Origin: a virus | Taxonomy: Duplodnaviria > Heunggongvirae > Uroviricota > Caudoviricetes | DNA length: 30,042 nucleotides | Reading direction: 5' to 3' (one strand) | IMG/VR virus record: IMGVR_UViG_2711768048_000007 | Part shown: positions 40-25,477 of the stretch, in pieces | Layout of the letters: each line of letters opens with the position of its first letter | How positions within the stretch are numbered: the stretch's first letter is position 1 | Position numbers and translations under genes: made by a program | The notes under the pieces: generated by a model | Database searches by the model: none | Seen by the model: only the letters and a program-made list of their open reading frames with translations | What the model was told of the DNA's origin: nothing

Positions 40-402
40 GGGGCTGATTCTGGATTCGACGGGATTTGCGAAACCCAAGGTGCATGCCGAGGGGCGGTTG
101 GCCTCGTAAAAAGCCGCAAAAAATAGTCGCAAACGACGAAAACTACGCTTTAGCAGCTTAATAACCTGCTTAGAGCCCTCTCTCCCTAGCCTCCGCTCTT
201 AGGACGGGGATCAAGAGAGGTCAAACCCAAAAGAGATCGCGTGGAAGCCCTGCCTGGGGTTGAAGCGTTAAAACTTAATCAGGCTAGTTTGTTAGTGGCG
301 TGTCCGTCCGCAGCTGGCAAGCGAATGTAAAGACTGACTAAGCATGTAGTACCGAGGATGTAGGAATTTCGGACGCGGGTTCAACTCCCGCCAGCTCCAC
401 CA
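40..402 (+). ncRNA. ssrA: tmRNA (SsrA), complete
   Basis: Begins GGGGCTGATTCTGGATTCGACGGG and ends with the tRNA-like arm GGTTCAACTCCCGCCAGCTCCACCA; 363 nt, as expected for enterobacterial tmRNA. A TATACT -10-like hexamer lies upstream at 20..25. Confidence 0.95.
358..395. repeat. attL core: 38-bp direct repeat inside the ssrA 3' end
   Basis: ATGTAGGAATTTCGGACGCGGGTTCAACTCCCGCCAGC is repeated exactly at 26630..26667; the sequences diverge immediately after (TCCACCA here, CCACCA at the right copy). Confidence 0.85.
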
Positions 403-510: not shown

Positions 511-1284
511 TTACAACTTAAAGAGTTTCGCTTGCCCTGGATTAACAGCTTCGACGTAGTTTTTGACCCCTATTCTGTGCGGCTCATAATTGCTTGAATA
601 GAAATCAATCAGGAAGTCACTCATTTTCTGAGATGTGACTTTCATAACTCCCTTACTCAAAGTTAAATTAAACACGCTAATCTTTGACGATGGTGCCTGA
701 GTTTTACTCATGTTGGCTTGATAACCAGATTTACGCATTGCCACTAGTGCTTCGTCGTAAGCCGCTTGTAATTGGGCCAAATCGTTTGACGAGATGATCA
801 CATCATCCATAAACACACTTAGCTTGAGATCATGATGTTTGTTCAATCGGCGTAGTAAGCTACCAAAATAACTTTTATCTAAGCAGAGGGTTGCAAGTAT
901 TGGAGATTGAACAAAACCAAAAGGGAGGACATGCTTATGTGGACTATGGGACAAGTTTCTTACAGTTGAAAATGTTGAGATTTCCCGCGCTTGAGAATAG
1001 GTGAAGTAGCTCTTTAGATCACGGGTGATACGACTACGGCTCGTTGACTGAAAAAATTGTTTAATATCAACAACGGCAAAAAAATCACTTTTTAAGTGTA
1101 ATCTGGCAGCTTTAAGATGCCCACCAGTTCTTAGATGGTAAAAATAGAGTGGCGGAATCCACTTGTTTCTGACAGCCTGAAGTATCTTCCCTCCGACTTT
1201 ACGTGCCTCAACGCTTGGGACATAAACCCAAACCCCGGGCTTAATCTCAAATTTATCTTCCCACCTTTGAACTTCTATTGTCAT
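511..1284 (-). CDS. compact reverse transcriptase (257 aa), family unassigned
   Basis: The translation carries RT palm motifs in the correct order: FFAVVDIKQFF (motif A with Asp), PFGFVQSPILATL (motif B-like) and SVFMDDVIIS (catalytic xxDD, FMDD variant). True ATG start, with a TAA two codons upstream in frame. Confidence 0.75.
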   Translation of the reverse strand: MTIEVQRWEDKFEIKPGVWVYVPSVEARKVGGKILQAVRNKWIPPLYFYHLRTGGHLKAARLHLKSDFFAVVDIKQFFQSTSRSRITRDLKSYFTYSQAREISTFSTVRNLSHSPHKHVLPFGFVQSPILATLCLDKSYFGSLLRRLNKHHDLKLSVFMDDVIISSNDLAQLQAAYDEALVAMRKSGYQANMSKTQAPSSKISVFNLTLSKGVMKVTSQKMSDFLIDFYSSNYEPHRIGVKNYVEAVNPGQAKLFKL

Positions 1285-1426
1285 GAGTTAAATTGTTGTA
1301 GTTGAAGGCCATGTTAAGAACGGCGTAAACCGCACCAACTAAGCCAACAAACGCGGTTGCGCATTTGAGCATAGCGGTGATCAGTTCAACACGCGCCTTA
1401 ACTAAGCCAAGTTCGTTTGTATCCAT
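1253..1426 (-). CDS. small membrane peptide (about 57 aa, one hydrophobic helix), upstream of and overlapping the RT gene
   Basis: GGAGG lies 8 nt upstream of the second ATG (MDTNELG...). Hydrophobic stretch LITAMLKCATAFVGLVGAVYAVL. The 3' end overlaps the RT start by 32 bp, suggesting translational coupling. The first in-frame ATG is at 1441. Confidence 0.5.
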   Translation of the reverse strand: MDTNELGLVKARVELITAMLKCATAFVGLVGAVYAVLNMAFNYNNLTHDNRSSKVGR

Positions 1427-1687
1427 AACTTGTTCCTCCATAGATACCTGACGTCTCTTAGCGCAAGCGCATGGCCCTAACTAAATAAAAAATAACAACC
1501 AGTTAGCCCAGAAAGCTTAACAAGTCGGCGTCCGATTACATGGCAATCAGGTAATCGGTCCGCAGTCGCAAAGCGACAAACTACATATCTACGGAGTGGG
1601 GATAAATCCCCGCTAACGTCAGGCATTGTTAATTTAACCTCAACTTATAGAAAAGTATAGTTTTAAATCATGTAGTTATGTCGCCAT

Positions 1688-1996: not shown

Positions 1997-3097
1997 TCAT
2001 TCCATTTCGAGATCATCAACCTTCACTTCAAGCTCAAGACTGGTCGTAAAACCATTATCCGGGCTGACGGTATGTGTCAGAGTCGTAATGGTCCATTCCG
2101 CATCATCTATCGGCTGTTTAAAGCCACTGACTTTCACTGGCATTTCCGTGTAGAGATCTGCCCGCCCTTCCGCCAGTTGTAGCGAGAATGACGCAACGCC
2201 GCGTTGCAGGCGTTCCCACTGCATTTTCGCTGCCCGTTCAGCGTTGCTCCGGTTGGCATAAGTGCGATTAAGTACCAGCACGTTTTCATCCGTACCCACC
2301 AGGTAATCGCCCTGCTTCGCTTCCAGCTCTTTCTTCTGCTTCTTAGTCCTGCGCTTACGCTTCACCGTGGTGCTTTCTTTCTTCGCGGGTTCGCGGGTAT
2401 GCAACCAGCTGGCAATTATGCCCGTATAGGCTCCGCGATCTGCCAGGGTAAAGCGGTGACTGTCGCCGTCCTTACGTGTGATAGTGATCACCGGCAGTGG
2501 TTTACCGCTGGCACTTTTGCCCTGTCCCTGCCGGATGAATAACAGATTGCCATTTTTCACCGACGCAATAGCACCGTACTGGCGCGCCAGCCGCATCAGA
2601 AAACTACCGTCACTCTCATTAGTCTGGTCTATATGCTCCACGAGCTTATCCGACAGGTCTTTACCCAGTACCATCTTCAGCTTGTGCCGCGCGGCTATCT
2701 CCTTCACCACTTCCCCAATGGTGGTCTTGTGCCACGATTTTTCACGGCGGGTATTCAGCGTTTCCCGAAAATCAGCACTTCGCGCCCGGATAGTCAGGCG
2801 GTCCGGTGCGCCAGTGTGTTCAATCTCGTCCACCGTGAATGCCCCTTTCGGGAAAAGCGGCTGCCCCTTCCAGCCCAGCGCCAGCGTAATGACCGCACCA
2901 CGGCGCGGCAGCACGATTTTCCCGTCGGCATCGTCCAGCTCCAGATCAAGCTGGTCTGCTTCAAAGCCCCGATTGTCCGTCAGAGTCAGACTCATCAGGC
3001 GGTTGTCCAGCACAGTGGTGATATCCCTGCCTGCAATACTGATGCTGAATGCGGGAGTTTTGTTGCCTTTGTTAAGCAGTTCAGAGCTGAAATTCAC
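1997..3097 (-). CDS. D: tail protein D (late control gene D family)
   Basis: 366 aa, lying between U and ogr as in P2. GTG start overlaps the U stop (GTGA). Confidence 0.85.
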   Translation of the reverse strand: MNFSSELLNKGNKTPAFSISIAGRDITTVLDNRLMSLTLTDNRGFEADQLDLELDDADGKIVLPRRGAVITLALGWKGQPLFPKGAFTVDEIEHTGAPDRLTIRARSADFRETLNTRREKSWHKTTIGEVVKEIAARHKLKMVLGKDLSDKLVEHIDQTNESDGSFLMRLARQYGAIASVKNGNLLFIRQGQGKSASGKPLPVITITRKDGDSHRFTLADRGAYTGIIASWLHTREPAKKESTTVKRKRRTKKQKKELEAKQGDYLVGTDENVLVLNRTYANRSNAERAAKMQWERLQRGVASFSLQLAEGRADLYTEMPVKVSGFKQPIDDAEWTITTLTHTVSPDNGFTTSLELEVKVDDLEME

Positions 3098-8765: not shown

Positions 8766-9702
8766 TCCCCAGTGCCGCCGCCAGTTCGTTCAGTGTATCC
8801 AGTGCAGCAGGTGCAGAACCCACCATTCCTGCAATCGCCGATTTCACAAAAGCCGTAGTGGCAATCTGTGTATTGTTGACCGACTGCGCCGCCGTGGGGG
8901 CTGTTGGCGTTCCGGTGAGTGCCGGACTCGACAACGGTGCTTTTAGTGCCAGCGCATTGTTAATGGTGGTACTGAAATTCGGATCATTGTTAATGGCTGC
9001 GGCTATTTCTTTCAGCGTGTCCAGCGTGGCTGGCGCACCATTAATAAGGGCCGTCAGTGCCGCCTGTACAAACGCAGTGGTCGCAACCTGCGTGGTATTA
9101 TTCCCCGCCGCTGGCGTTGGCGCTTTGGGGGTTCCGGTAAATGTCGGGCTGGCTTTTGGCGCGTACTGTGAATGCGGGTCCGGTGCGGCAAGATGTTTTG
9201 CCATCTGATCATCCGCGTAAACCTTCAGCTCCAGTGCCTTGTCATCCACATACTTGCGGGTTGCCAGCACTACAGCAGGGTCGATTTTCAGGGTGATATT
9301 GTCCGTGCTGCTGGTAATCAGCACCATGCGCACGGTCTGAGTGCGCCCGCTACCTTCAGCCAGTTGCGGCTTATAGCTTTCCGGGCAGTTGCCCACGGCA
9401 ATCAATGCCCCGGACTCATCAAACAAGCCCACTTCACGTATCCACCAACCGCCCTCGTTTTCAGGGATCACCTGTTCGGCAATAATCTGGCTGCTGTTCT
9501 GCGGGTCGATATAAAGCATATTCAGCGCAGCCCGGCGTTTCTCATTTACCAGTGCCGTCTGCTTTGCGTCCGGCGTTGGCAATACTCCACCGCCATCGCC
9601 CACCGCCATATGGGTAATTTTTAGCGGCACACCGAGCGCGGCGGCGCTGGCAAGTTTCGCCGCGCCAATATCCGTCAGCAGGGTATAAAATTTTGTGCTC
9701 AT
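8725..9702 (-). CDS. H: tail fibre protein H, N-terminal half only (truncated and fused to the FI 5' region)
   Basis: N-terminus [26 protein letters not shown]...MAVGDGGG and two TGTPxAPT...NNTQxATTAFV repeats are typical of P2-type fibre N-termini. The ORF stops after ...[20 protein letters not shown], and that tail is the FI start region read in another frame. No receptor-binding C-terminal domain. Confidence 0.7.
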
Positions 9703-9712
9703 GGATTCACTC

Positions 9713-10186
9713 TCATTGTGTCAATAACATGGACCGCCCCGCCTTCATGCGCGGTGCCACCCGGCTGATGGCCCAGCGGGCGTCACGCCACAAATCACCG
9801 CTTGCTTCCGCCAGTTCCTCGCCCCGCTTCACACCGGACGCCGTGGCGTCATAGTCCTGGTATCGTTCGTTGAGCATGGCGCGTGCCCAGCAGTAAACCG
9901 CGTTGAAATAGTGCTGAATGCGCTCACTTTTGCCGTCCAGCTGTTCCGCCGGAACTTCTGCCAGCGAGGCATACCCCAGCATCTGCTGGCGTCTGCGAAA
10001 CTCATACAGCTCTGCGTTGACCTCCGAAATTGCCGACAGCGCAACCTGCTTTAAACGCGGCTGCGTCACCGTGCCGTCAGTGCGCATCACGCTGCGAAAC
10101 TCCGACAGGTCCACATCAGGCCAGAACGGCGTATTCCTGATGATTTCCGCCTGTTCCGGTGCCTGTTCTGGCGCAACAAACTTCAT
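9713..10186 (-). CDS. L: head completion/stabilisation protein L
   Basis: NTPFWPDVDLSEFRSVMRTDG... has the gpL-like signature. Start set at the ATG with an AGGAGA Shine-Dalgarno (MKFVAPEQ...); the longest ORF begins with GTG at 10249. Confidence 0.75.
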   Translation of the reverse strand: MKFVAPEQAPEQAEIIRNTPFWPDVDLSEFRSVMRTDGTVTQPRLKQVALSAISEVNAELYEFRRRQQMLGYASLAEVPAEQLDGKSERIQHYFNAVYCWARAMLNERYQDYDATASGVKRGEELAEASGDLWRDARWAISRVAPRMKAGRSMLLTQ

Positions 10187-10281
10187 GCTGCTTTCTCCTG
10201 AAATAGAGGGCGGTGGACGGGGTTTTGATGTGGCAGTGCCTTTCGCCACCCCGTGCCGCCCGTGCGCGGGGGCACGTTCTG

Positions 10282-10932
10282 TCAGCGGCTGTCATTGCGC
10301 AGTCTGCGCTCCAGCTGCTGTTTGTCTTTTTTCACGCCACAGCGGGGATCGAGCTGTAACGCATGGTTGAGATGATTAAGGGCGGAAGCCGGGTTGTTTT
10401 CACTCAGGACAGCGCCAATCGCTTTATGCAGACGCGCCCGTGACTGGTCCGGCATATCCAGACCGTCTGTCAGCTCCAGCGTCTGCAGCAACAGATCGGC
10501 ATCAAAGCCGGTGGCGGCAAGCATTGCGCTCTGCGCCGCGTCTGCCATTTCCTCTGCCAGCACGGTCTGCACGTTGCGGTTACCCAGCGGCATCACCCAG
10601 CCATGACGCAGGGCATGACGCCCGATCTCCAGCGCCCCTGCATAATCTCCGGCATCAATGCGCCACAGCATCACGTACATCAGCACGTCATCCTGTTGAG
10701 CGCCTCCGGCAGCCAGAACGCCCTCCGCCCAGGCGGCATATTTCGGCAGCAGCTCCACCTTGATTTCCGCTTTTTTGACCGTGGACTGAACGCCCTTGAG
10801 ACGGCGGCGGTCTTCCGCCAGTTGCAGCAGCATCAGGTCATAGCCCGACGCGTGGCGAACACTGCCACCCTCGCGAGCGGCCTGTTCAGCCTGAACGCGC
10901 AGGCGATGCTGCCGTGCGGGACTCAGGCTCAT
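10282..10932 (-). CDS. M: terminase endonuclease (small) subunit M
   Basis: 216 aa, immediately downstream of the capsid gene, P2 gpM position. Confidence 0.8.
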   Translation of the reverse strand: MSLSPARQHRLRVQAEQAAREGGSVRHASGYDLMLLQLAEDRRRLKGVQSTVKKAEIKVELLPKYAAWAEGVLAAGGAQQDDVLMYVMLWRIDAGDYAGALEIGRHALRHGWVMPLGNRNVQTVLAEEMADAAQSAMLAATGFDADLLLQTLELTDGLDMPDQSRARLHKAIGAVLSENNPASALNHLNHALQLDPRCGVKKDKQQLERRLRNDSR

Positions 10933-23461: not shown

Positions 23462-23704
23462 TTACTTACCAACAATGACGCGGAAGTTGGAATGACCGAG
23501 GGATTCACGGACCTGATCAGTTTTGTACATTAGATAACGCAGGCTTACGCGGCCTTTGTTTTTTTCTTTCTTGACCATGTACTTAGCGAGTTGACCATGG
23601 TGAATTTTTTGGTAAACAGACCCGCGGGAAATCCCTTCCCATTCAGCGAATTCAGCAGGCGTAGCCATCTCTTTTGGTACACGAATTGAAATATCTGTGC
23701 TCAT
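23462..23704 (-). CDS. apl: Apl/Cox-like excisionase and repressor
   Basis: 80-aa basic HTH protein, first gene of the lytic transcript and divergent from cI (the 186 Apl position). Confidence 0.7.
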   Translation of the reverse strand: MSTDISIRVPKEMATPAEFAEWEGISRGSVYQKIHHGQLAKYMVKKEKNKGRVSLRYLMYKTDQVRESLGHSNFRVIVGK

Positions 23705-23806
23705 AGTGCAGTATCTCTTGGTTTAAGCTCGTTTTATGATGTTTAACCCCAACTTCTAAACTCTCATATTAGAAGTTAAATACAAAAATACGATCTCGTT
23801 ATTGGA
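23705..23806. promoter_or_regulatory. cI/apl switch region with a candidate operator palindrome
   Basis: AT-rich divergent intergenic region; inverted repeat AACTTCTAA-N9-TTAGAAGTT at 23751..23777. Confidence 0.5.
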
Positions 23807-24457
23807 TTGTCAAATGGAGAGTTCATCTTGAAGATTAATACAGGTGCAAATACGGGAGGGAGAGAGACCATCAAAAGGCTGATGACAGCCTATGGTTTCA
23901 ACACTCAGATAGCGTTGGTTGAACACCTCGAAGCATCAAAAAGCACCATGGCAAACAGGATGTTACGTGATAGCTTCCCTGCTGACTGGGTTATTCAATG
24001 TGCCCTTGAAACAGGTATTTCTCTTCTTTGGCTGACAACGGGCCAAGGGGAAATGTATCCTCAAACAGAAGAAAAAAATAAGTTCAAAAACGAGAGTTCA
24101 CCTACAGTTCGCCCCCTTTCAAAGATAGTTATCCCATCAGTAAGGCAGGTAACCATTGAGAACGGAACTCTCGAAGAGATGGGGGATGTTTTCCTTGATC
24201 AGACTTTGATACCCGGAAAAGCCGAATATTGTTTGTACGTCAAAGCTAACGACGGCAATTACATTGTTGATACATCAACAAAACAGCTTAGTAACGGAAT
24301 TTGGCTCATAGACATCGACGGTATGAAAAACATCGTCAAAATTGCGCGCATACCTGGAAACAAAATAGTAGTTAACCAAGATGACACGTCATTTGAATGT
24401 TCTGTAGATGATGTGGAAGTCGTAGGACGTGCAGTCAAAGTAATCAAGAACCTCTAA
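23807..24457 (+). CDS. cI: CI-type immunity repressor (start uncertain)
   Basis: HTH region AYGFNTQIALVEHLEASKSTMANRM plus a C-terminal domain. The longest ORF starts with TTG at 23807; a TTG at 23828 has a GGAGAG Shine-Dalgarno and is a likely true start. Confidence 0.75.
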   Translation: MSNGEFILKINTGANTGGRETIKRLMTAYGFNTQIALVEHLEASKSTMANRMLRDSFPADWVIQCALETGISLLWLTTGQGEMYPQTEEKNKFKNESSPTVRPLSKIVIPSVRQVTIENGTLEEMGDVFLDQTLIPGKAEYCLYVKANDGNYIVDTSTKQLSNGIWLIDIDGMKNIVKIARIPGNKIVVNQDDTSFECSVDDVEVVGRAVKVIKNL

Positions 24458-24460
24458 CTT

Positions 24461-25477
24461 ATGACCATAAGAAAACAGCCGAACGGAAAATGGTTGTGTG
24501 AGTGCTATCCCAATGGACGCAATGGTAAGCGCGTGCGTAAGCAATTTGCTACCAAAGGCGAAGCCATTGCTTTTGAAAGCTTCACAATGGAAGAAGTGAA
24601 TAAAAAACCGTGGTTGGGTGAAAAGGATGATCGGCGACGCCTATCAGAATTAATTGAGCTTTGGTATTCCCTGTATGGTCAGACACTCGCAGACCCCAAG
24701 CGCCTCATGGCGAAACTTAGAATTATCTGTAATGGTCTAGGCGACCCCATCGCCTCAGAACTGACAGCCGGTGACTTTACGAAATACCGCGAAGCACGGT
24801 TAAAAGGTGACGTTCGTAACGAAGACGGCACACTAATGTCGCCAGTAAAACCACGCACGGTGAATCTTGAGCAACGTAACCTATCATCGGTTTTCGGCAC
24901 ATTGAAAAAACTAGGCCACTGGTCAGCACCAAATCCTCTCGCCGGGCTGCCAACATTTAAAATCGCTGAGGGGGAACTGGCGTTCCTGACCTCGGAAGAA
25001 ATTAAACGTCTGCTAGATGCCTGCGCTGATTCTCAAAACCCCAGTCTGCTTTTGATTGCAAAAATATGCCTGGCCACCGGCGCACGCTGGAGTGAAGCCG
25101 AAAACCTGCAGGGCCATCAGTTATCTAAATACCGCATCACTTATACCAAGACGAAGGGTAAGAAAAACCGCACCGTGCCGATATCTCAAGATCTGTATGA
25201 CGAACTCCCCAAGAACAGAGGGAAGCTATTCACCCCGTGCAGAAAAGCCTTTGAACGAGCAGTAAAGCGAGCTGGCATCGAGCTGCCAGAGGGCCAATGC
25301 ACTCACGTGCTACGTCATACATTCGCCAGCCATTTTATGATGAATGGCGGAAACATACTGGTTCTGCGCGATATTCTGGGCCATGCCGATATAAAAATGA
25401 CGATGATCTATTCTCATTTTTCACCAGAACACTTAGAAGATGCAGTAACTAAGAATCCTTTAAATTATATTGAGTGA
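24461..25477 (+). CDS. int: tyrosine integrase (P2 Int family)
   Basis: 338 aa; C-terminal catalytic region HVLRHTFASHFMMNGGNILVLRDILGHADIKMTMIYSHF with the catalytic Tyr. Lies next to attR. Confidence 0.9.
   Translation: MTIRKQPNGKWLCECYPNGRNGKRVRKQFATKGEAIAFESFTMEEVNKKPWLGEKDDRRRLSELIELWYSLYGQTLADPKRLMAKLRIICNGLGDPIASELTAGDFTKYREARLKGDVRNEDGTLMSPVKPRTVNLEQRNLSSVFGTLKKLGHWSAPNPLAGLPTFKIAEGELAFLTSEEIKRLLDACADSQNPSLLLIAKICLATGARWSEAENLQGHQLSKYRITYTKTKGKKNRTVPISQDLYDELPKNRGKLFTPCRKAFERAVKRAGIELPEGQCTHVLRHTFASHFMMNGGNILVLRDILGHADIKMTMIYSHFSPEHLEDAVTKNPLNYIE

Follow-up and report, generated by a model that had tools for sequence, protein, structure and literature searches.

What kind of system is encoded by the small reverse transcriptase gene that lies near one end of the virus record IMGVR_UViG_2711768048_000007 (IMG/VR; Caudoviricetes)? 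This 30,042-nucleotide stretch of DNA, referred to here as the window, carries on its minus strand a reverse transcriptase (RT) of 257 residues (511–1284; WP_000151541.1), overlapped at its start by an open reading frame (ORF) for a small protein (SP) of 57 residues (1253–1426; WP_000380485.1). A first-pass annotation of the window had read the locus as a layout of two genes. The SP has held up as the conserved partner of the RT, but a third part had been missed: a non-coding RNA (ncRNA) with covarying inverted repeats, which lies upstream of the SP. The ncRNA, the SP and the RT co-occur and co-evolve across Proteobacteria. We hold with considerable confidence that the locus is a retron-type RNA/RT/SP unit, a minimal retron-like element that lies outside all 13 catalogued retron types and is probably directed against phages.

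The RT contains its palm motifs in the order given at first pass (VVDIKQFF, PFGFVQSPILATL and FMDD), and it is recognised by the Pfam model RVT_1 with an E-value of 2e-21 (77 bits; cut-off 29.6). The catalytic residues are D73 and, within FMDD, D160/D161; a QSP motif is also present. These three aspartates and the QSP motif, together with H56, H63, F205, N206 and Y243, show little or no variation in alignments of the family. A word-indexed search with the window RT returned 72 clusters at 90% identity, almost without exception 250–260 residues long, and the cluster to which the window RT itself belongs includes Klebsiella sequences on about 1,000 contigs. When 1.84 billion representatives were searched exhaustively, at least 158 clusters at 50% identity were returned (E ≤ 1e-30); the best 150 of the 158 all belong to the family and are mostly of ~250–260 residues, with some shorter partial entries. 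In a scan of one genome per species, 80 RT loci were found in Gamma-, Beta-, Alpha- and Zetaproteobacteria and in a few metagenome-assembled genomes. The RT ORF is ~245–275 residues long in all 80, so the unusual compactness remarked on at first pass is a property of the family. The gene might nevertheless be suspected of being what decay has left of a larger known RT, as it is ~60 residues shorter than typical retron RTs. This idea is ruled out by the constant length and by the conservation of all catalytic residues in at least 158 clusters from four proteobacterial classes; the catalytic core is intact, and the probability that remains for decay is practically nil.

The first-pass annotation had set this RT apart from those of retrons, a view overturned by profile comparison. 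Retron RT models are the best PADLOC matches for all 33 of the 33 family members aligned (RT_VI, followed by I-B, IX and II-A); for the window RT the highest retron score is that of RT_VI, at 63 bits. The best NCBIfam match of the window RT is the retron St85 RT (49.5 bits; cut-off 235), and the closest solved structures, found as sequence matches in the PDB, are the RTs of retrons Ec86, Eco8, Kva2, Ec78 and Ec67. A pairwise alignment with the Ec86 RT spans Ec86 residues 64–260. In this alignment Ec86 YADD faces FMDD of the window RT, and Ec86 NNATPH, which holds the retron NAxxH motif, faces KAARLH; an AAxxH thus replaces NAxxH, the counterpart in the Type VI RT is NASLH, and the histidine, H63, is invariant in the family. 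The top matches in all three collections are retron RTs and the Ec86 alignment agrees with them, which places the family, on sequence comparison, in the retron lineage, without the N-terminal ~60 residues of Ec86 and with the VTG motif replaced by one of its own. Judged by scores, the family is farther from every catalogued retron type than those types are from each other. A group II intron origin finds no comparable match: the RT/maturase model TIGR04416 gives 23 bits (cut-off 300), and 257 residues leave no space for a maturase domain.

The second component, the SP, starts at the ATG at 1426, behind a GGAGG Shine-Dalgarno (SD) sequence at 1435–1439. RefSeq annotates exactly the 57-residue form, although the ORF can be drawn in a longer form (1253–1441). 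Its 3' end shares 32 nucleotides (1253–1284) with the start of the RT gene. The GGAGG, the length of 57 residues and the overlap had been described correctly from the start, and the association of the two genes, whose absence from other genomes had been named as part of a possible refutation, is conserved: an SP-like ORF with its own start codon lies between the ncRNA and the RT in 69 of ~78 loci. These ORFs encode 39–93 residues (median 52) and terminate within the first 4–95 nucleotides of the RT gene. When every ORF in the 3 kb to either side of the RT was clustered, no conserved neighbour other than the SP was found, nor any conserved helix-turn-helix (HTH) protein. The SP is thus the sole conserved neighbour of the RT, as would be looked for in the co-evolving effector of a retron. 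The SP of the window is unmatched in Pfam, PADLOC, NCBIfam and PHROGs, but SPs align with one another across loci: the N-terminus is basic, a helix that is hydrophobic or amphipathic follows, and N-Y (N42 and Y43 in the window), which is near-invariant, closes C-terminal segments such as LNMAFNY and SKVVNY.

In the window SP a basic or polar N-terminus is followed by a hydrophobic helix (C22–F41) free of charged residues and by the motif L-N-M-A-F-N-Y. The description of this protein as a membrane peptide with a single hydrophobic helix is therefore apt for the window, where its uncharged helix makes membrane insertion plausible. It does not extend readily to the family, for which membrane association can only be inferred: the median KD19 hydropathy is 1.79, and in 99% of family SPs the 19-residue stretch of highest hydrophobicity contains one charged residue or more.

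Could the small ORF be untranslated, and the region merely a part of the structured RNA? Synonymous divergence in the SP is indeed far below that in the RT, for example 0.35 against 1.12 between the window and the locus L002, with RT values saturated in most pairs, and this suggests an extra constraint on the SP coding region at the level of RNA. Against an untranslated ORF stand a start codon with a strong SD sequence in 91% of loci, a reading frame kept open over 39–93 residues, the near-invariant N-Y and a ratio of nonsynonymous to synonymous divergence below one in 19 of 19 pairs tested (0.13–0.67). The pattern of conservation thus indicates that the SP is a translated protein under purifying selection, and an untranslated ORF is very improbable. 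The low synonymous divergence suggests that the coding sequence is constrained as RNA as well, as reported for the ‘hybrid RNA’ of Type VI retrons. RT start codons, by comparison, almost never have an SD sequence, the mean SD energy being −2.0 kcal/mol at RT starts and −8.4 kcal/mol at SP starts. Since the RT starts without an SD sequence and within the final 4–95 nucleotides of the SP gene, translation of the RT is probably coupled to that of the SP. In many alphaproteobacterial loci (L045–L072) the RT start codon overlaps the N-Y codons of the SP (..GUC AAC UAU G..), and there the conservation of N-Y could derive in part from the RT start. In the lineage of the window the N-Y codons lie 14 nucleotides upstream of the RT ATG, and the motif is therefore conserved independently.

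The third component occupies the 245 nucleotides that separate the SP from ogr, the next gene upstream, a stretch that is thereby more than a promoter region. A 193-nucleotide region here folds with a minimum free energy of −67.7 kcal/mol (z = −3.9), and none of 200 shuffled sequences was as stable. The retron-type, msr-msd-like ncRNA can be delimited to 1424–1629 on the minus strand, so that it runs through the SP start codon. In the minimum free energy fold a 5' inverted-repeat arm resembling a2 (AUGCCUGACGUU; 1615–1626) pairs with a 3' arm resembling a1 (GACGUCAGGUAU; 1444–1455). The 5' arm is followed by ‘UUA-G-CG’, which we take to be the same context as the branch site of Ec86 (CCCUUAGCG), and G1613 is a candidate for the branching and priming G. 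The A and the G of this ‘UAG’ are invariant in 28 gamma- and betaproteobacterial sequences. Among the features between the arms are three hairpins. The first, GGGG-AUUUAU-CCCC (1598–1611), is msr-like, and a hairpin of variable sequence occupies the same position in other loci. The second, GUCGC-UUU-GCGAC (1565–1577), is conserved as GUCAC-NNN-GUGAY in most relatives, the window lineage having undergone a double change from A-U to G-C. The third, GCGC-UU-GCGC (1461–1470), adjoins a1 within the motif CAUGCGC..GCGCUA(A/G)G, which is invariant in the 28 sequences; its alphaproteobacterial counterpart has a different, self-complementary sequence.

The terminal stem is maintained by compensatory change. 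It was detected in ~50 of 58 loci in many different sequences, among them CCGGC/GCCGG, CUUGGC/GCCAAG, CUCUGGC/GCCAGAG, ACUUUAGCAA/UUGCUGAAGU and CCCUAGCA/UGCUAGGG. Covariation was assessed in a structure-blind MAFFT alignment of the 28 gamma- and betaproteobacterial sequences (alignment A2; core columns 11–17 and 212–218). In this alignment the 7-bp core stem is paired in 97% of cases, compared with 26–38% when the partner columns are slid. Two-sided changes occur in six of the seven core pairs, and the observed covariation was reached by none of 500 shuffles. RNAalifold independently recovered the same terminal stem along with the hairpins GUCAC-NNN-GUGAY and GCGC-loop-GCGC.

A covariance model (R1) was built from the same 28 sequences. 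Its single match in the window falls at 1424–1629 (73.5 bits; E = 1e-15), and Rfam models, scanned over positions 1–2000 at E ≤ 1, matched only the transfer-messenger RNA (tmRNA). Across the loci R1 found one match each in 44 (E from 1e-30 to 9e-5), many of them outside the seed, and nothing else in 628 kb. These matches always lie directly upstream of the SP and RT genes and on the same strand. The RNA thus has the properties expected of retron ncRNAs in general, namely a position adjacent to the RT, a2/a1 repeats that enclose stem-loops and, as a candidate, a conserved G after the 5' arm.

This RNA also bears on whether the RT works by a retron mechanism at all. It might instead belong to a non-retron system of RT and ncRNA, carrying out templated synthesis of a new product in the manner of DRT2 or acting as an Abi-type RT, with the SP as an accessory. 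The divergence of the RT from all retron types and its lack of VTG would be in keeping with such a system, and Type VI-like systems already deviate from canonical msDNA (multicopy single-stranded DNA) behaviour. On the other hand, models of UG, DRT and Abi RTs, Abi-P2 included, score far below those of retrons (RT_UG33 is the best at 33 bits, and Drt3a gives 17.6 bits against a cut-off of 200), and the RNA shows the a2/a1 layout and the UAG context of a retron; a non-retron mechanism is accordingly improbable. The Abi-P2 and UG/DRT RTs of P2-like prophages resemble the present one in that an RT is carried as a variable cargo gene. They differ in RT class, with weak matches or none, and in the much greater size of the RT; retron-type repeats mark the ncRNA here, and the module sits between ogr and the attachment site rather than in the tin/old or Z/fun hotspots. 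A closer likeness is to Ec86 (Eco1; Type II-A), where RT matches cover Ec86 residues 64–296, including the NAxxH region and RT motifs 1–7, and where the ncRNA likewise precedes the RT, contains an a2/a1 stem and shows a ‘UUAGCG’-type context after the 5' arm. The family differs from Ec86 in having F/YMDD or YVDD for YADD and VFN for VTG, and in its effector, which in Ec86 is a large enzyme and here a peptide of 57 residues encoded between the ncRNA and the RT.

The ncRNA may also act on translation of the SP. Immediately 3' of the first hairpin lies a segment, X (CUCCGUAGAUAU; 1585–1596), that is complementary over 12 bp to a segment X' (GUAUCUAUGGAG; 1436–1447), which contains most of the SD sequence of the SP and abuts or overlaps a1. 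X is thus a candidate anti-SD sequence. Elsewhere the pairing is kept with different flanks, as in UCCUCAUCAG/UUGAUGAGGA, CCUUAUCAAGGU/AUUUUGAUAAGG, CCUCUAUUCGU/AUGAAUAGAGG and CUCUACUCGGUC/GAUUGAGUGGAG. The register of the helix shifts between sequences, and cognate and non-cognate pairings were compared sequence by sequence. An X:X' helix is present in 41 distinct loci, and in ~30 of the 41 the SD core lies inside it. The mean contiguous helix is 8.7 bp for cognate pairs, compared with 6.1 bp for non-cognate pairs (standard deviation 1.6) and 5.9 bp for shuffled sequences. Duplex energies are −16.2 kcal/mol for cognate and −13.3 kcal/mol for non-cognate pairs, whereas pairs of control regions show no cognate advantage.

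An ncRNA upstream of an SP whose ribosome-binding site is sequestered is, by comparison with published descriptions, a feature of Type VI retrons. The first-pass annotation had matched the pair of genes to no system that it could name, and no defence or annotation model names the pair; Type VI nevertheless offers an analogue, though membership itself fails. Type VI retrons, of which Retron-Vpa2, Retron-Eco12 and Retron-Sen3 have been named (Mestre et al. 2020, PMC7736814; Zhang et al. 2025, bioRxiv 10.1101/2025.10.22.683967; Garcia-Rodriguez et al. 2026, bioRxiv 10.64898/2026.04.27.721009), have the order ncRNA–SP–HTH–RT, with a toxic SP whose ribosome-binding site is sequestered in the ncRNA (bioRxiv 10.1101/2025.10.22.683967; bioRxiv 10.64898/2026.04.27.721009). 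The SP is controlled either by msDNA-dependent translational derepression, as in Vpa2, or post-translationally by an HTH antitoxin, as in Sen3 (bioRxiv 10.1101/2025.10.22.683967; 10.64898/2026.04.27.721009). Several Type VI retrons yield no detectable msDNA without a trigger. The HTH protein, of the Cro/C1 type (cluster 2_1), is encoded upstream of the RT or overlapping it in ~78% of members. The family described here shares with Type VI the order ncRNA–SP–RT on one strand, an ncRNA with terminal inverted repeats within ~200–280 nucleotides upstream of the SP, and a small hydrophobic or helical SP (~55–80 residues) whose coding region is under apparent extra nucleotide constraint. It differs in that the ~78 family loci have no Cro/C1 HTH and no ORF between the SP and the RT, in that the window RT has 257 residues rather than 319, and in that the SP overlaps an RT gene with no SD sequence of its own.

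For calibration, the published Sen3 SP sequence was used to find a genuine Type VI retron, which lies on a plasmid of Pseudomonas (locus L083). Its partner proteins score 95.5 bits on HTH_VI and 128 bits on SP_VI, whereas the window SP has no SP_VI match in PADLOC at E ≤ 1. Profile–profile alignment of the window RT family with the Type VI RT gave a probability of 96.5% with 23% identity over 160 columns; RT_IV and RT_V were not among the top 25 PADLOC matches of the window RT. Neither WP_000151541 nor any other family accession that could be recovered appears in the published tree that covers all Type IV, V and VI RTs. Model R1 found no match at L083, which is of the cl2075 type, and detection between the two kinds of ncRNA fails in both directions. 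Type VI SPs belong to the clusters cl2075, cl2760, cl3272 and cl3897 or have the Vpa2-like fold; sequence comparison placed the SP in none of these clusters. The low RT_VI score, the ranking of RT_IV and RT_V and the absence from the tree place the family, by these comparisons, outside Type VI (clade 3). The possibility that the element is Retron-Eco12 or a Type VI member without an HTH protein was rejected on the RT scores, on the absence from the tree and on the failure of R1 on L083. Homology between the SP and the Vpa2 SP had been suspected from a shared L/I-x3-F-N-Y/F spacing around residues that Vpa2 toxicity requires, but hhalign showed no similarity, and the resemblance is anecdotal.

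The calibration locus is itself of note. Positions 2501–4024 of L083 (pBYT5-1) hold a complete cl2075 Type VI retron, SP–HTH–RT, on a conjugative Pseudomonas plasmid; its SP is 94% identical to the reconstructed SP of the Salmonella Retron-Sen3, and a DUF2513 gene and radC follow.

Type IV retrons (Ec48/Eco6) offer a further parallel, as retrons with a hydrophobic effector that presumably acts at the membrane. Their effector differs in being larger, in having two transmembrane segments and in being encoded downstream of the RT, and their RT model is not among the closest to the window RT.

How might such an element work? By analogy with retron biology and with the Type VI papers, we infer that it makes msDNA and acts in defence. 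The leader RNA would serve the RT as primer and as template; synthesis would begin at the conserved G beside the a2/a1 stem and yield msDNA of the msd-like segment, while the SP would be the toxic effector. In uninfected cells the fold of the leader would keep translation of the SP, and of the RT coupled to it, low. A phage-dependent change in the synthesis, stability or state of the msDNA would then remodel or sever the leader, and the ribosome-binding site would be freed either by pairing of cDNA with RNA at or near segment X or by cutting of the template by RNase H. The SP would then be made, leading to arrest or death of the cell and hence to abortive infection, an outcome that has been reported for Vpa2, a Type VI retron. 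As the SP and the RT are apparently translated together, derepression could be self-reinforcing. This full defence mechanism is, on balance, favoured, with less assurance than the identity of the unit itself.

The same three parts could also be controlled after translation. The SP and the RT would always be made together, the RT–msDNA complex would neutralise the SP in place of the missing HTH protein, and damage to the msDNA by the phage, or its titration, would free the toxin; the models are the canonical retron toxin–antitoxin arrangement and Retron-Sen3. The apparent coupling of the RT to the SP suggests stoichiometric co-production, the Sen3 SP is made constitutively and held in check by a partner protein that binds the RT as well, and no HTH protein is available at the family loci to take this role. 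The conserved, covarying helix that sequesters the SD sequence points instead to translational control, and post-translational control is considered unlikely, although it is the chief rival among readings that keep the same three parts.

A number of observations weigh against a retron in which the leader controls the SP. At the position of the Ec86 VTG motif (RT7) the window RT has V-F-N, of which F205 and N206 are family-invariant; the first-pass annotation had rightly noted the lack of VTG. The window RT reaches at most 63 bits on retron models, whereas established retron types score 100–190 bits against each other; the 319-residue RT of L083, by contrast, scores 258.9 bits on RT_VI, 190 on RT_V, 168 on RT_IV and more than 100 on most other retron types. 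The window RT lacks not only the N-terminal ~60 residues of Ec86 but also its C-terminal ~25. Alignment of the SP with the Vpa2 and Sen3 SPs by hhalign gave probabilities below 0.1%. In the RNA, some alphaproteobacterial loci have ‘UAA’ in place of ‘UAG’, which makes the assignment of the branch G tentative. The X:X' signal is weaker than that of a2/a1 and is unclear in alphaproteobacterial loci. The order of the segments is a2, X, a1, X', so that the two helices cross, with an overlap of 2–4 nucleotides in the window; they may represent a pseudoknot or alternative folds, perhaps not formed simultaneously. A consensus scan found no sigma-70-like promoter upstream of the ncRNA on the minus strand. 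Finally, coupling of RT translation to that of the SP is awkward for a pure model in which msDNA derepresses the SP.

A more far-reaching proposal is made here only tentatively. The element could be an undescribed, in effect a fourteenth, retron type and the smallest known, with an RT of ~250 residues, a toxin of ~50 residues and an RNA of ~200 nucleotides in ~1.2 kb. It would have no protein antitoxin or HTH protein; its leader would both template the cDNA and hold the ribosome-binding site of the toxin in a pseudoknot-like helix. The RT would be translated only together with the toxin, which would make the element a suicide switch that amplifies itself as soon as the leader is opened by reverse transcription. 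On this same tentative footing, the type would be widespread in Proteobacteria, including prophages of S. Typhi, K. pneumoniae and E. coli, and would have gone unseen by the defence-system finders that were tried. No published description of the RT–SP–ncRNA family was found in the literature covered, which did not take in all journals; the only papers met with were diagnostic ones, in which STY2879 is a target.

The surroundings of the locus are those of a P2-like prophage end. On the minus strand, after ssrA (tmRNA; 40–402, plus strand), which is the integration target and marks the attL side of the prophage, come the RT ORF, the SP ORF, ogr (1688–1939; Pfam Ogr_Delta, 6.7e-22), which is the last core gene of the prophage before the module, and gpD (1997–3097), upstream of ogr in the same series of genes. 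Identical DNA closes a 186/P2-like prophage of E. coli strain C2 that is integrated at ssrA and whose genes include CI, CII, Fil, Dam and a replication endonuclease. The C2 annotation lists a ‘reverse transcriptase domain-containing protein’ (WP_000151541.1), a ‘hypothetical protein’ of 57 residues (WP_000380485.1) and an ‘ogr/Delta-like zinc finger family protein’. The GC content of the module is ~40–43%, compared with 55–59% in the adjacent tail genes. Among 5,426 complete E. coli genomes, 771 match parts of the 1.3-kb stretch and only 28 contain it whole, and 13 records of Klebsiella phages end in the module. The low GC content, the full locus in 28 of 771 partly matching genomes and the Klebsiella phage records together indicate that the module behaves as a moron, which bears out the earlier placing of it between the last late gene and the attachment site.

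This setting also raises the question of whether the module serves defence at all, or whether it is an addiction or regulatory module of the prophage or island, in which a toxin and an RT stabilise the element or tune lysogeny. Its position at the prophage end beside the attachment site, downstream of the late activator ogr and in the same orientation, would fit such a role. The element also occurs on plasmids, and integrases lie near the RT in eight loci when ORFs within ±3 kb are clustered. Every retron type tested, including the architecturally closest, defends against phages, however, and the moron positions of P2-like phages are a known store of genes for defence, so that little probability is given to a role outside defence.

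Several other features of the window were seen in passing. A 12-bp stem-loop with a run of T residues at 411–438, directly after ssrA, is the tmRNA terminator on the attL side. On the opposite strand the same stem-loop follows the RT stop codon by ~70 nucleotides, where it could serve to terminate the retron transcript as well. At ~23620–25219, between the replication and portal genes, the matching RefSeq record has a DUF4145 protein and a hypothetical protein of 203 residues. This is a known variable hotspot of P2, with DinI and small hypothetical genes nearby, and may hold further defence cargo. At ~8977–10511 a gene of the recombinase family adjoins oppositely oriented tail-fibre-assembly genes and a hypothetical gene, an arrangement characteristic of an invertible switch of host range (tail fibre).

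The RT gene has a further identity, as the S. Typhi diagnostic target STY2879. The paper that describes this target for loop-mediated isothermal amplification (LAMP) reports that STY2879 is 99% similar at the protein level to the E. coli RT. A near-identical protein is carried by prophages of E. coli and Klebsiella, and this similarity at the protein level may matter for the assumed species specificity of the S. Typhi assay. If confirmed, the present reading would extend both the retrons and the repertoire of cargo that P2-like prophages carry in major pathogens by a large lineage, of at least 158 clusters at 50% identity, that is as yet unannotated. A retron RT ~20% below the size of those in present use, together with a defined ncRNA of ~200 nucleotides, would be of interest for retron genome editing, where the size of the cargo counts. 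Confirmation would also mean that an RNA, a toxin of ~50 residues and an RT of ~250 residues suffice for a working retron, and it would sharpen the view of how Type VI-like retrons link reverse transcription to the release of a toxin, with no HTH partner to complicate the picture.

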